Of a stretch of 64,000 nt of DNA, positions 15,269 through 18,623 are shown in pieces (the stretch's first letter is position 1; each line of letters opens with the position of its first letter). The DNA comes from Gemmatimonadales bacterium (lineage in GTDB: Bacteria; Gemmatimonadota; Gemmatimonadetes; Gemmatimonadales; GWC2-71-9): assembly GCA_050733355.1 (NCBI GenBank), contig JBOHSY010000473.1:1095-65094 (forward strand). The letters are read 5' to 3'. The notes under the pieces were generated by a model. The model ran no database searches and was not told the origin of the DNA. It saw only the letters and a program-made list of their open reading frames with translations. The position numbers were made by a program, and so were the translations under genes.

Positions 15269-16359
15269 TCGACGATCTGCTCCAGCGCCGCGACCACCGC
15301 GTCCATGTCCTCCTCGGTGCCGATCGAGATGCGCAGGCACTCCTGGAGCTCGCTCGCGCCGGAGACGTCGCGGACCAGAATGCCATGCTCGTCCAGCAGC
15401 CGGCGGAAGACGTCGCGCGCCGGCGTCCGGTGGCAGCGGAGCAGCACGAAGTTGGCGGCGGTCGGGAACACGGTGACGCCCGGCAGCACGCGCAGCCGCT
15501 CGAGCGTGCGGTCCCGCGTGGCCACGAGCGACCGGATCCGCTCGGCCCGGAGCTCCGCGTGCCCCATCAGCGTCGTCGCGGCCGCGAGGGTGATGGCGTT
15601 CACGTTGTACGGCGGCTTGCCCTTCGCGATCTCGCGCGCGAGCGCCGGGTGCGCCAGCGCATAGCCGAACCGGAGTGCCGCCAGGCCGAACGCCTTCGAG
15701 AACGTGCGGAGCACCACCACCCGCGGTGACGACGGCAGCAGCGGGACCGCCGTGGGTCCGCCGAAGTCCTGGTAGGCCTCGTCGCAGAGCACCAGCGCGT
15801 CGGTGGCCTCCAGCACGCGCTCGACCCCGTCGTGCGGGAGCGCGCTGCCGGTGGGATTGTTCGGCGAGTTGAGCACCACGACCCGGGCCCGCTCCCGCGC
15901 GGCAGCCCGGACGAGCGAGTCGACGTCGTACCGGAAACCCGCCCCGAGCGCCACCGGCACGTAGCGCCCGCCGAAGACGTTCGTAAGCAGGCGGTAGAGG
16001 GAGAACGTCGGCGAGGGTGACACCACGGCGCTTCCCGGAGTCAGCGTGGTGGCGAGCACCGCCTGGATCAGCTCGTTGGAGCCATTGCCGACCAGGATCC
16101 CCTCGGGGTGCCACGCGTGCGCCGCCGCGATTCGTCGCAGCAGCTCGGCCGGAACGAACTCGGGATAGCGGTTCCATGGGAGCGCCATCGCGCGCTCGAC
16201 GATCTCACGCTTGAGCGGCTCGGGCACGTCCCATGGGCTCTCGTTCTGGTTCAGCTTCCGGCGGGAGGGGCGCGGGACGAGCGTGTACGCCGGCTGCCCG
16301 CGCACGGCGGGCTTGACCAGCTCGATGGCGGGGCTCGCGTCCGCGAGCGATTCGGTCAT
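15256..16359 (-). CDS. hisC: Histidinol-phosphate aminotransferase
   Basis: Start at ATG 16359 (MTESLADAS...). Class-II aminotransferase sequence with SKAFGLAALRFGY (PLP Lys). The 637-aa ORF in the track is an out-of-frame extension into the upstream gene. Confidence 0.9.
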   Translation of the reverse strand: MTESLADASPAIELVKPAVRGQPAYTLVPRPSRRKLNQNESPWDVPEPLKREIVERAMALPWNRYPEFVPAELLRRIAAAHAWHPEGILVGNGSNELIQAVLATTLTPGSAVVSPSPTFSLYRLLTNVFGGRYVPVALGAGFRYDVDSLVRAAARERARVVVLNSPNNPTGSALPHDGVERVLEATDALVLCDEAYQDFGGPTAVPLLPSSPRVVVLRTFSKAFGLAALRFGYALAHPALAREIAKGKPPYNVNAITLAAATTLMGHAELRAERIRSLVATRDRTLERLRVLPGVTVFPTAANFVLLRCHRTPARDVFRRLLDEHGILVRDVSGASELQECLRISIGTEEDMDAVVAALEQIVDGER

Positions 16360-18623
16360 CGGGCGCGGCGCCCGAGCACCGCTTCGAGGCGCGCGGGCAG
16401 CGCGCGGGCGCGGAACGGCTTGCTCAGGAAGTCGTCCGCGCCCAGCTCGAATACGCGCACTTCGTTCTCCTCGTCGCCCTTCGCCGTGAGCACGATGACC
16501 GGGATGTCGCGGGTGGCGCTCCGGGACCGGAGCTGCGACAGCACGCCGTAGCCATCGAGGCCCGGGAGGTTGAGGTCGAGCACGATGATGTCCGGCGCGT
16601 GCCGATCCACCTGGTCCAGCGCCTGGACGCCGTCGCGCGCCTCCTGCACCGTGTAGCCCTCGCGCTCGAGCAGGTCGCGCATCACGCGCCGGAGGGCGTC
16701 CTCGTCGTCGACCAGCAGCACGACGATGCCGCGCTTCCGCTCGAGGCCGTCGGCGGAGACCGGCGGCGCGTCGTCGAGCAGGTCCATGTCCATCGAGAAG
16801 TCGAACGACGCGGGCGGCCCGTGGACCGTTGCGGGGGGCGGAGCGCTGGTGGCCGCGGGTGCCGCAGGCGGGGACACCGGCGTCCTGCCGCCGCGCGTGG
16901 GCTCCGGCATCGCACGCCGCGGCGCCTTCGTCCGCTCCACCGGCCGTTCCGCGGGGACGTCCGTGACCCGGAGCAGCTCCTCCACCGTGGTCTCGCCGGC
17001 GACCACGTGCTGGAGCCCGCTCTCCCACAGCGACCGCATGCCCTGCTCCCGCGCGATCTCGGCGATCACGTCGGCCGTGGCTCCCGCTCCGATCTGCCGC
17101 TCGATCTCCGGCGTGATCGTGAGCACCTCCACGATGCTGAACCGGCCGCGGTAGCCGGTCTGGGCGCACTCGGTGCAGCCCACGGCCCGGACGAGGTTGG
17201 TGCCGGGCGGAAGCAGCCGCGCGACCCGCTCGGGCACGGCGTTGCCGCCCGACTCCTTGCAGGCGGCGCAGAGCCGCCGCATCAGACGCTGCGCCACGAT
17301 GCCCCGCAACGCCGAGGCGATCTTGTACGCCTCCATGCCCATGTCGAGCAGACGGGTCACCGAGTTCGGCGCGTCGTTGGTGTGCAGCGTGGACAGCACC
17401 AGGTGGCCGGTGAGCGACGCCTGCAGTGCAATCTGCGCGGTTTCCTGGTCGCGCACCTCGCCGATGAGCACCACGTCCGGGTCCTGCCGGAGGATCGAGC
17501 GGAGCGCCGAGGCAAAGGTGAGGCCGGCCTTCTCGTGCACCTGCACTTGCACGATGTTCTGTCCGAGCCGGTATTCGACCGGATCCTCCACGGTGACGAT
17601 GTTGACGCCCTCGCTCTGGATCAGCCGAATCGCCGAGTAGAGCGTGGTGGTCTTGCCGGAGCCGGTCGGCCCCGTCACCAGGATGATGCCCTCCTTGTGC
17701 CGCAGCAGGCGCTCGATGGCCTCGGCCTCCTGCGGATTGAGTCCCAGACCATCGAGCGAGAGGACCGTCGATTTCTGGCTCAGGATACGGATCACGACCT
17801 TCTCGCCCAGCGAGGCCGGAAGCGTCGAGATGCGCAGGTCGATCGGCTCGCCGTTCACCGACACCCGGGCGCGTCCATCCTGCGGCCGCAGGCGGTCGGC
17901 GATGTCGAGCCCGGACATGATCTTGATTCGCGAGATGAGGGGGAGGCCCGCCGAGCGGGGGATCTTCATCACCTGCCGCAGCACGCCGTCGATGCGGTAG
18001 CGCACCACGACCCCGCCCTCGGCCGGCTCGACGTGAATGTCGCTCGCCCGGCTCGTCACCCCATCGGCGAGCATGGTGTCGACCAGGCGGATGATGGGCC
18101 GCTGGCTCGCCTCCTCCGCGGTGACCGCGGCGTCGTCCTCCTCCTTGACTTCCTTGACCTCGAAGTCGCCGCTCATGCTGTCGAGGAAGCGGCTGATCGC
18201 CTCCTCGCCGCGGTACAGCTCATCCAGCTTCTCGCGGATCCGCGCCGGCGAGGCGAGGAGCAGGCGGACGTCGCGGCCGGTGGCGAACGCGAGCGCCTTT
18301 TCGGCGTCGAGGTCGAACGGATTCGCCGTGCCGATCTCCAGCAGCGATTCGGTGACCCGGAGCGGCACGACGTTGTATTTCCGAACGAGCTGCTCGGGCA
18401 CCGCATCCTTCACGTTGGGGTCGACCCCGGCCAGCTCCGCCACGCCGAAGCGGAACCGGGTGGCGACCGCGTTCAGGATCTGCGGGTCGGTCGCCAGCTT
18501 GCGCTGGACCAACGTTTCCCAGAGCGACCCGGGCGGTCCATCCGCGGCACGGATGCCCGCGAGGGCGTCGCTCGGGACGAGCGTCTCCACGGTGGGCACG
18601 AGCCATTCATCGGTGAACTGCAT
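16356..18623 (-). CDS. PilB/GspE-family secretion ATPase fused to a C-terminal response-regulator receiver domain
   Basis: Start ATG 18623 (MQFTDEW). T2SSE_N-like N-domain, Walker A GPTGSGKTT (17649-17672), Walker B/Asp box, tetracysteine CAAC...CTEC, Pro/Ala linker. REC at 16374-16730 has DD, D in VLDLNLP, T in VLTAKG and K in SKPF. Stop overlaps the hisC ATG (ATGA). Confidence 0.85.
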   Translation of the reverse strand: MQFTDEWLVPTVETLVPSDALAGIRAADGPPGSLWETLVQRKLATDPQILNAVATRFRFGVAELAGVDPNVKDAVPEQLVRKYNVVPLRVTESLLEIGTANPFDLDAEKALAFATGRDVRLLLASPARIREKLDELYRGEEAISRFLDSMSGDFEVKEVKEEDDAAVTAEEASQRPIIRLVDTMLADGVTSRASDIHVEPAEGGVVVRYRIDGVLRQVMKIPRSAGLPLISRIKIMSGLDIADRLRPQDGRARVSVNGEPIDLRISTLPASLGEKVVIRILSQKSTVLSLDGLGLNPQEAEAIERLLRHKEGIILVTGPTGSGKTTTLYSAIRLIQSEGVNIVTVEDPVEYRLGQNIVQVQVHEKAGLTFASALRSILRQDPDVVLIGEVRDQETAQIALQASLTGHLVLSTLHTNDAPNSVTRLLDMGMEAYKIASALRGIVAQRLMRRLCAACKESGGNAVPERVARLLPPGTNLVRAVGCTECAQTGYRGRFSIVEVLTITPEIERQIGAGATADVIAEIAREQGMRSLWESGLQHVVAGETTVEELLRVTDVPAERPVERTKAPRRAMPEPTRGGRTPVSPPAAPAATSAPPPATVHGPPASFDFSMDMDLLDDAPPVSADGLERKRGIVVLLVDDEDALRRVMRDLLEREGYTVQEARDGVQALDQVDRHAPDIIVLDLNLPGLDGYGVLSQLRSRSATRDIPVIVLTAKGDEENEVRVFELGADDFLSKPFRARALPARLEAVLGRRAR

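Follow-up and report, generated by a model that had tools for sequence, protein, structure and literature searches.

A 64,000-nt stretch of contig JBOHSY010000473.1 from a Gemmatimonadales bacterium (assembly GCA_050733355.1), called the window here and with a G+C content of ~70%, carries on its reverse strand a gene for a PilB/GspE-family ATPase that ends in a receiver domain. ATPase-REC is used as a working name for this gene (16356-18623) and its 755-aa product. The explanation that we regard as on balance probable is that ATPase-REC is a receiver-tethered hexameric ATPase of the PilB/GspE family, which would be gated by a histidine kinase and would work with a NUDIX hydrolase, the neighbouring histidine (his) genes being incidental.

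Domain organization of ATPase-REC

The open reading frame (ORF) of ATPase-REC runs from an ATG at 18623 to a TGA at 16356. The alternative GTG start at 18782, which gives the longest ORF, would run into the upstream gene, whose stop is at 18724. Pfam hidden Markov models (HMMs) recovered MshEN, T2SSE and Response_reg domains in the product. The T2SSE core (E 8e-135) carries the Walker A, Asp box, Walker B and His box motifs and a tetracysteine site, with the Walker A sequence GPTGSGKTT at residues 318-326 (nt 17646-17672) and the four cysteines at C452/C455/C483/C486 (nt 17166-17270). The hallmarks of a type II/IV secretion ATPase, listed in an earlier note on this DNA made from the sequence alone, are therefore all found. 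The N-terminus, MQFTDEWLVP, is family-specific and is followed by the MshEN match at residues 67-142 (E 5e-16); the AlphaFold2 model of the protein, built on 44 sequences, gave a predicted local distance difference test score (pLDDT) of 85-93 for the N-domain.

Behind the core, the variable Pro/Ala-rich residues ~555-630 correspond to the linker of ~75 aa described in the earlier note, and the model is disordered over some 70 aa of it (residues 560-630, pLDDT ~30). The Response_reg match (PF00072; E 8e-35, 119.8 bits against a gathering score of 30.2) covers nt 16386-16721, in agreement with the 16374-16730 first assigned to the receiver, and this part was modelled as a (beta-alpha)5 fold with a pLDDT of ~90. 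The complete set of phospho-relay residues that had been reported is present and conserved: D639, D640, the phospho-acceptor D683 within VLDLNLP (nt 16575-16577), T713 and K735. These five residues, the Walker A motif and the four cysteines were conserved in at least 98% of 119 aligned family members, and a second alignment of 44 sequences showed most key residues to be invariant, including D640, D683, T713 and K735. The Walker, Asp box, His box and tetracysteine motifs of the core are essentially invariant among family members. The receiver of ATPase-REC is complete and apparently phosphorylatable.

Distribution of the ATPase-receiver fusion

The architecture is widely present and already machine-annotated in databases. 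All of the best 120 database clusters (71-100% identity to ATPase-REC) exhibited MshEN, T2SSE and Response_reg, and those with an organism name were Gemmatimonadales; database relatives number in the thousands, and IMG labels many of them 'PilB-like protein/CheY-like'. On contigs from one genome per species, 366 stretches encode relatives. The best 80 of these, called the related loci below, are all from Gemmatimonadales and have the full-length architecture, with nearly all matches spanning about residues 1-753 and the few shorter ones falling at contig ends. Because the architecture is conserved across independent assemblies, an assembly or frameshift artefact was ruled out as the source of the fusion. 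A survey of 151 Gemmatimonadota genomes, in which f1 denotes the family of the window and f2 and f3 other families, showed a full-length orthologue (56-75% identity) in nearly every f1 genome, in f3 and in part of f2; the classes beyond gave PilB/GspE-like matches only.

We also used residues 400-755 as a query against 1.84 billion representatives. About 40 full-length clusters at 50% identity showed the ATPase-REC architecture in other lineages (34-56% identity), the named members including Zixibacteria and Planctomycetota, and the search returned as variants REC-ATPase, REC-ATPase-REC, a triple-receiver ATPase and a long-tailed ATPase-REC. The combination of T2SSE and receiver is therefore widespread in Gemmatimonadales and beyond; rarity of the architecture does not agree with the thousands of relatives, the clusters in other lineages and the IMG annotation.

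Some Gemmatimonadales carry a second ATPase-REC paralogue (L105:7271-9875, L106:8014-10766 and L108:7879-10574; 46-50% identical), always followed by a single-domain receiver of 122-125 aa, and there is a third long paralogue type of ~700-770 aa. The genome of the window is without the second paralogue.

Among the neighbours of the distant relatives are two-component genes, namely hybrid kinases, Hpt and single receivers. The Zixibacteria locus presents in order a prepilin-like gene, the ATPase-REC gene, a small ORF, a hybrid kinase and a single receiver, and the Planctomycetota locus a Ser/Thr kinase, an FHA protein and the ATPase-REC gene. Four further loci showed, in the order given, an ATPase-REC gene, a single receiver, a 176-aa ORF and a prepilin-like gene (L098); an ATPase-REC gene, directly followed by an FHA-GAF histidine kinase, and a REC-kinase (L099); a REC-ATPase-REC gene, a 174-aa ORF and a prepilin-like gene (L102); and, on a metagenome contig (L101:5982-13663), consecutive genes for Hpt, an MshEN-REC protein without the ATPase, a triple-receiver ATPase and an ATPase-REC. 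This last cluster looks like a dense phosphorelay around PilB-like parts. No PilC, GspF or secretin gene was found near the ATPase-REC genes of these six loci. The distant contexts support a real His-Asp input, and those of some lineages also a connection with pilin-like proteins.

In most of the order, synteny with the ATPase gene extends to an FHA-GAF cyclase gene (22985-24523 in the window, forward strand). The FHA-GAF part of the cyclase shares 31% identity over 294 aa with that of the L099 kinase (L099:10449-12272; E 2e-35), which we take as a lead only.

Relation to PilB, GspE and MshE

ATPase-REC is 41% identical to PilB and 41% identical to GspE of its own genome, a metagenome-assembled genome of 543 contigs that is 94% complete. 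It scored 529.7 bits on the PilB equivalog model TIGR02538, under the cut-off of 675.65 that the genome's own PilB exceeds (748.1 bits), and 554.4 bits on the GspE equivalog model TIGR02533, its highest NCBIfam score and again under the cut-off (630.25). The best solved relatives in phmmer were the Geobacter PilB structures 5zfr/5tsg, with 399 bits. With these and the Myxococcus xanthus PilB 3jc8 (solved PilBs score 390-399 bits), ATPase-REC shares the layout of N-domain, N2 and C-terminal ATPase, the Walker A and B motifs, the Asp and His boxes and the tetracysteine site. It differs from PilB in the added linker and receiver, in lacking the motif for cyclic di-GMP (c-di-GMP) and in not being encoded with pilT, pilC or pilMNOPQ. 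With GspE/EpsE (Vibrio 4pht and 1p9r) it shares the ATPase core and the zinc site, but it lies away from gspD, gspF and gspL and outside the GspE clade, and most host genomes are without GspF.

The N-terminal domain was compared with NF053729, which models the tandem RLGxx(L/V/I)(L/V/I)xxG(L/V/I)(L/V/I)xxxxLxxxLxxQ motifs of c-di-GMP binding. No match at E<=0.01 was obtained on residues 1-170 of ATPase-REC, whereas PilB of the same genome scored 58.3 bits at full length and 60.8 bits with its N-terminal segment (cut-off 38). At the motif position ATPase-REC has the degenerate SLWETLVQRKLATDPQILNAVATRF, compared to RLGSILVKNGLVTEPDLTTFLSKQ in Geobacter PilB. The absence of a c-di-GMP-binding MshEN motif, already remarked in the earlier note, thus stands, though Pfam still detects the MshEN fold. 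MshE-type ATPases and PilBs with a c-di-GMP-binding MshEN domain have been reported (V. cholerae 5htl; PMC5013675, PMC4624772, PMC7288161). Like them, ATPase-REC has an MshEN-fold N-domain on a T2SSE ATPase and a regulatory input built into the motor; in contrast, its RLGxx...G...Q motifs are degenerate and the built-in input would be the C-terminal receiver.

We placed ATPase-REC in a quick maximum-likelihood tree of ATPase cores, with PilB and GspE references from one phylum only. ATPase-REC and its f1, f2 and f3 orthologues formed a 99% clade, nested in a further 99% clade with two other Gemmatimonadales paralogue types. The next-outer clade (97% by the Shimodaira-Hasegawa-like approximate likelihood ratio test, 36 rows) contained receiver-tailed ATPases including the Zixibacteria protein. 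PilB and GspE sequences formed clades of their own in other parts of the tree (100% and 99%, respectively), and the deep branches were poorly resolved. From these relations, ATPase-REC appears to be a member of a distinct multi-phylum lineage of receiver-tailed PilB/GspE-like ATPases.

Motors and platforms in the genome and the family

The genome of the window has three platforms (PilC, GspF and TadB/C), three secretins, one PilM and 13 pilin-like genes, all off the contig of the window (C473), and also two PilT-like genes. On C473 itself, searches for T2SSF, secretin, PilM and N_methyl (pilin) domains gave no match. The lack of PilC, PilM-Q or GspF genes nearby noted earlier is thus confirmed over the whole contig, PilC being encoded on C88, PilM and PilQ on C436 and GspF on C528, and so is the orphan status of ATPase-REC: the type IVa pilus (T4aP), type II secretion (T2SS) and Tad systems lie on other contigs, each with its own ATPase. 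Beside these complete systems ATPase-REC is a fourth motor, and it has no platform, pilin or secretin to itself. A further receiver on a pilus-system component of this genome was seen in the Tad locus, whose CpaE-like ParA/MinD ATPase (C505, L011:7360-8604) bears a partial one (Response_reg, E 4e-8).

Among 14 good f1 genomes, 10 encode a single PilC, which lies in a pilB-pilT-pilC cluster, and lack GspF and Tad platforms; each of the 10 carries both PilB and ATPase-REC, and ATPase-REC therefore shares PilC there or needs no platform. Several f2 genera with PilB lack ATPase-REC, including three single-contig genomes of 4.6-5.3 Mb, so ATPase-REC is not essential to piliation. One f1 genome (G043; 2.6 Mb, 99% complete) has lost pilB and pilT, its pilC is truncated to residues 133-402 and a PilT-like gene carries a stop (L129, L130, L131). 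In the same genome a frameshift interrupts the ATPase-REC gene near codon 52, and the downstream NUDIX gene is missing, so we dropped this case as proof that ATPase-REC persists without T4aP; the pattern is compatible with either joint decay or an error-prone assembly.

These counts bear on the idea that ATPase-REC is a second T4aP extension motor on the PilC/PilM platform of PilB, with PilB answering c-di-GMP and its paralogue a two-component signal, which we consider possible but doubtful. The closest solved relatives are PilB proteins, and the catalytic motifs, the N-terminal domain and the zinc site are all retained. Most genomes of the family have one PilC but at least two long ATPases, and in G043 the pilB-pilT-pilC cluster and ATPase-REC may decay together. 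Lone prepilin-like genes beside distant relatives would also fit, as would the trans-acting receiver proteins that are reported to bind PilB. PilB is found in every genome with an intact ATPase-REC; it is, however, nearly universal in the phylum (a match in 147 of 151 genomes), so the co-occurrence says little, and several genera with T4aP lack ATPase-REC. Within this order ATPase-REC is never encoded with pil genes, and a second pilus motor leaves the NUDIX partnership and fusion described below unexplained.

A GspE paralogue that drives type II secretion under phosphorylation control seems very improbable. GspE is the top NCBIfam model by score, and the genome has a GspD-GspE locus and GspF; but the 554 bits obtained are below the cut-off of 630, phmmer puts ATPase-REC nearer to PilB than to GspE structures, the tree leaves it outside the GspE clade, and the gene is kept without a GspF-type second platform in the 10 f1 genomes counted above.

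NUDIX partner and ATPase-NUDIX fusions

The earlier note had overlooked a conserved partner, a 158-aa NUDIX hydrolase with an intact Nudix box, whose gene in other genera is fused to the ATPase gene and takes the position of the receiver. It lies downstream of the ATPase gene in 72 of the 80 related loci and in 21 of 22 orthologous f2/f3 loci from whole genomes, where barrel, ATPase and NUDIX is the gene order. The window places it between hisH and hisF, the usual position of hisA (12819-14047, reverse strand). Because the order-wide context shows barrel, ATPase and NUDIX, we assign NUDIX to the ATPase gene, with the his genes placed around it.

The receiver is missing from the ATPase in 11 f2 genomes examined, and in 9 of these, from four genera, ATPase and NUDIX share an uninterrupted reading frame of 700-768 aa. 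Pfam showed MshEN, T2SSE and NUDIX in the 743-aa fusion of L103, whose ATPase part is 52% identical to ATPase-REC, the family-specific N-terminus included, and whose NUDIX part is 47% identical to that of the window over 154 aa; a second genus has the same single ORF. Long proteins with this NUDIX domain make up 467 database clusters, and the best 120 of these all have MshEN, T2SSE and NUDIX and come from Gemmatimonadaceae or Gemmatimonadales. The tree places the fusions within the ATPase-REC clade, which means that loss of the receiver was secondary. With the fusion present in several genera of Gemmatimonadaceae, it is most likely that the ATPase and the NUDIX enzyme serve a common process. 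For the substrate of the enzyme, the matches to NudB, MutT and the Bdellovibrio RppH-like 3ees were all sub-threshold and led to no assignment.

The same data can be read to mean that ATPase-REC has left the pilus and secretion machines and is a signalling or nucleotide-handling ATPase acting with NUDIX and perhaps with the upstream barrel protein, its C-terminal slot being filled by REC or by NUDIX. This too we consider possible but doubtful. The order of barrel, ATPase and NUDIX is kept across the order, the in-frame fusions recur in four genera and in hundreds of database clusters and branch from within the ATPase-REC clade, no dedicated platform is present, and neither PilC nor GspF accompanies the distant relatives, which sit among kinase, Hpt, FHA and Ser/Thr-kinase genes. 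On the other side, the ATPase retains all that marks a functional PilB-type motor, the barrel gene is inverted away in one genus, and a neutral deletion between neighbours can also yield a fusion. The two leading options for the process are an alternative, phosphorylation-gated motor on the single shared T4aP platform and a pilus-independent task with NUDIX.

Histidine genes and upstream region

In the window, hisC, hisB and hisH sit between the ATPase-REC and NUDIX genes (14035-16359; Table 1). The TGA of ATPase-REC (16358-16356) and the ATG of hisC (16359-16357) overlap by 4 nt, so the ATGA overlap reported earlier was confirmed in the sequence; the coupling to the histidine operon that had been drawn from it was not. 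Mapping of the window genes onto the 80 related loci by tblastn placed hisC, hisB and hisH each in just 58 of them. NUDIX follows the ATPase gene directly in 17 loci, and hisH alone stands between them in two (L045, L048). The 22 orthologous f2/f3 loci have no his genes between ATPase and NUDIX except for one hisB-like gene in f3 (G069, L110:8639-9220), which is 48% identical to hisB of the window. The L110, L045 and L048 loci may be intermediates of his-gene gain or loss. The overlap itself is confined to the nearest relatives; the other loci with hisC have gaps of 12-110 nt.

A functional tie of ATPase-REC to histidine biosynthesis would draw on the 4-nt overlap and on the his genes that follow the ATPase gene in the 58 loci. 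We give it next to no credence: at least 17 f1 loci and, bar the hisB-like gene, the 22 f2/f3 loci lack the his genes at this site, a gap replaces the overlap in most relatives with hisC, and no conserved his linkage that would make ATPase-REC a member of the histidine operon was found across the relatives. The overlap gives co-expression at most, with no functional tie to histidine synthesis. To judge from the gene orders, the most parsimonious ancestral operon would be barrel, ATPase-REC and NUDIX, with hisCBH inserted in part of f1.

The gene upstream of ATPase-REC has an ORF of 603 aa from its first canonical start (18724-20535), and its conserved reading frame runs about 55-80 codons further (20536-20781). 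Orthologues start in that upstream stretch with signal peptides, and the gene of the window has no ATG, GTG or TTG start there, as would be expected if the start were non-canonical or if the stretch held a mutation or a sequencing error. In the AlphaFold2 model (pLDDT 83.6) the C-terminal part is a barrel of the 16-strand type, for which BamA and TamA were matched at E 7e-11 and a probability of 1.00. Because of the orthologue signal peptides and the BamA/TamA-like model, the product is predicted to be an exported Omp85-superfamily protein with a non-POTRA N-terminal half. Its gene lies upstream of the ATPase gene in 75 of the 80 related loci; in one genus (L104, L121, L128) it is inverted away from the ATPase gene, which makes the functional link weaker. 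We did not count the barrel as an established functional partner, in view of this inversion and of the synteny of the whole region, trpE included.

The 100-nt spacer between the two genes contains at 18650-18722 an imperfect GC-rich hairpin of 8-nt periodic units, three copies of GGCGGACC followed further on by three of GCCTGCCC, with a fold of -58.7 kcal/mol and a z of just -1.37. A consensus scan of 18624-18723 revealed no sigma-70 promoter and no terminator.

Table 1. Coordinates of the features described in the window and location of the machine genes on other contigs of the same genome.
Feature	Position	Strand	Basis
ATPase-REC gene, PilB/GspE-family ATPase with C-terminal receiver	16356-18623	-	Pfam MshEN, T2SSE, Response_reg
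N-terminal domain, residues 1-142, MshEN/N1-type fold without c-di-GMP motif	18198-18623	-	Pfam MshEN; NF053729
T2SSE ATPase core, residues 171-552	16968-18113	-	Pfam T2SSE, E 8e-135
Pro/Ala-rich variable linker, residues ~555-630	16734-16961	-	low conservation; pLDDT ~30
Receiver domain, residues 635-746	16386-16721	-	Response_reg, E 8e-35
NUDIX hydrolase, 158 aa, intact Nudix box	13571-14047	-	Pfam NUDIX, E 9e-21
hisC	15256-16359	-	Pfam
hisB	14646-15236	-	Pfam
hisH	14035-14649	-	Pfam
Spacer between barrel and ATPase-REC genes, 100 nt	18624-18723	-	sequence
Predicted exported Omp85-like outer-membrane barrel gene, DUF5686-related	18724-20730	-	AlphaFold2 and weak DUF5686 match
pilB-pilT-pilC	contig C88
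gspD-gspE	contig C299
gspF	contig C528
Tad locus	contig C505
PilM, PilQ, most pilin-like genes	contig C436

Discussion

ATPase-REC is predicted to be a catalytically competent hexameric ATPase to whose C-terminus a long flexible linker attaches a receiver; it would thereby amount to a response regulator with a secretion-type ATPase as its output. An unlinked histidine kinase would phosphorylate D683, and the phosphorylated receivers, six per hexamer, may alter ATPase activity, the state of the hexamer or its localisation. This input would replace the c-di-GMP-binding N-terminal motif that the canonical PilB of the same genome has. The direct two-component control proposed in the earlier note is plausible for what may be a pilus or secretion motor.

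The statement there that known inputs to such ATPases are N-terminal or in trans agrees with a 2024 review of PilB regulation, which covers c-di-GMP, PilZ/FimX, phage peptides and trans-acting receivers and mentions no cis-fused receiver. The trans-acting receivers on PilB include the PATAN-REC proteins of PixG/PixH type in Synechocystis (PMC11181946; bioRxiv 10.1101/2021.06.11.447907), DrdR of Xanthomonas (PMC13507683) and PilG/PilH (PMC11656802). In each case a CheY-like receiver reportedly controls a PilB-type motor, as proposed here for ATPase-REC; those receivers are separate proteins of chemosensory or orphan systems, whereas the receiver of ATPase-REC is covalently tethered. No study of an ATPase-receiver fusion and no published link of a secretion-type ATPase to NUDIX was found in the literature searched, many subscription papers lying outside its reach.

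NtrC-type regulators offer a general analogy. They join a receiver to an AAA+ ATPase, and phosphorylation controls ring assembly or activity within one polypeptide; they differ from ATPase-REC in that the ATPase is of another superfamily, the output is sigma-54 activation and the receiver is N-terminal.

Several observations weigh against a kinase-gated motor that works with NUDIX. No histidine kinase adjoins ATPase-REC in the window or is linked to it in Gemmatimonadales, the nearest being a hybrid kinase (4370-6472, forward strand) that is not syntenic in relatives. Many genera have kept orthologues that lack the receiver, and in these they can do without phosphorylation control. The NUDIX matches are far under the cut-offs (NudB, 39 bits against 103; 3ees, 31.8 bits). 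Gene order is broadly syntenic across the order, trpE and the FHA-GAF cyclase included, which makes adjacency weak evidence and leaves the fusion alone as strong. Finally, the tree came from a quick search, and its PilB and GspE references represent a single phylum.

A broader proposal, which we think quite unlikely, is that a clade of PilB/GspE-type ring ATPases became detached from its machines and serves as a His-Asp output, with a C-terminal slot that takes REC or NUDIX. In Gemmatimonadales, the ATPase, NUDIX and possibly the barrel protein would then form an undescribed signal-gated system that couples nucleotide hydrolysis by NUDIX to the motor and needs neither PilC nor GspF.

For the annotation of this region, ATPase-REC is not part of histidine metabolism, and the NUDIX gene found where hisA would be expected should be grouped with the ATPase. 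NUDIX has repeatedly taken the place of the receiver, which ties a secretion-type ATPase to nucleotide-diphosphate hydrolysis and gives a biochemical lead: which nucleotide is hydrolysed, and does it gate the motor? The known control of PilB-type motors is through c-di-GMP at the N-terminus or through separate proteins; with a covalently tethered receiver, motor and response regulator would be one and the same protein. If true, a sensor kinase would have a simple and testable way to act on a pilus- or secretion-type ATPase, in a family that is abundant in soil Gemmatimonadales and present in several other phyla.

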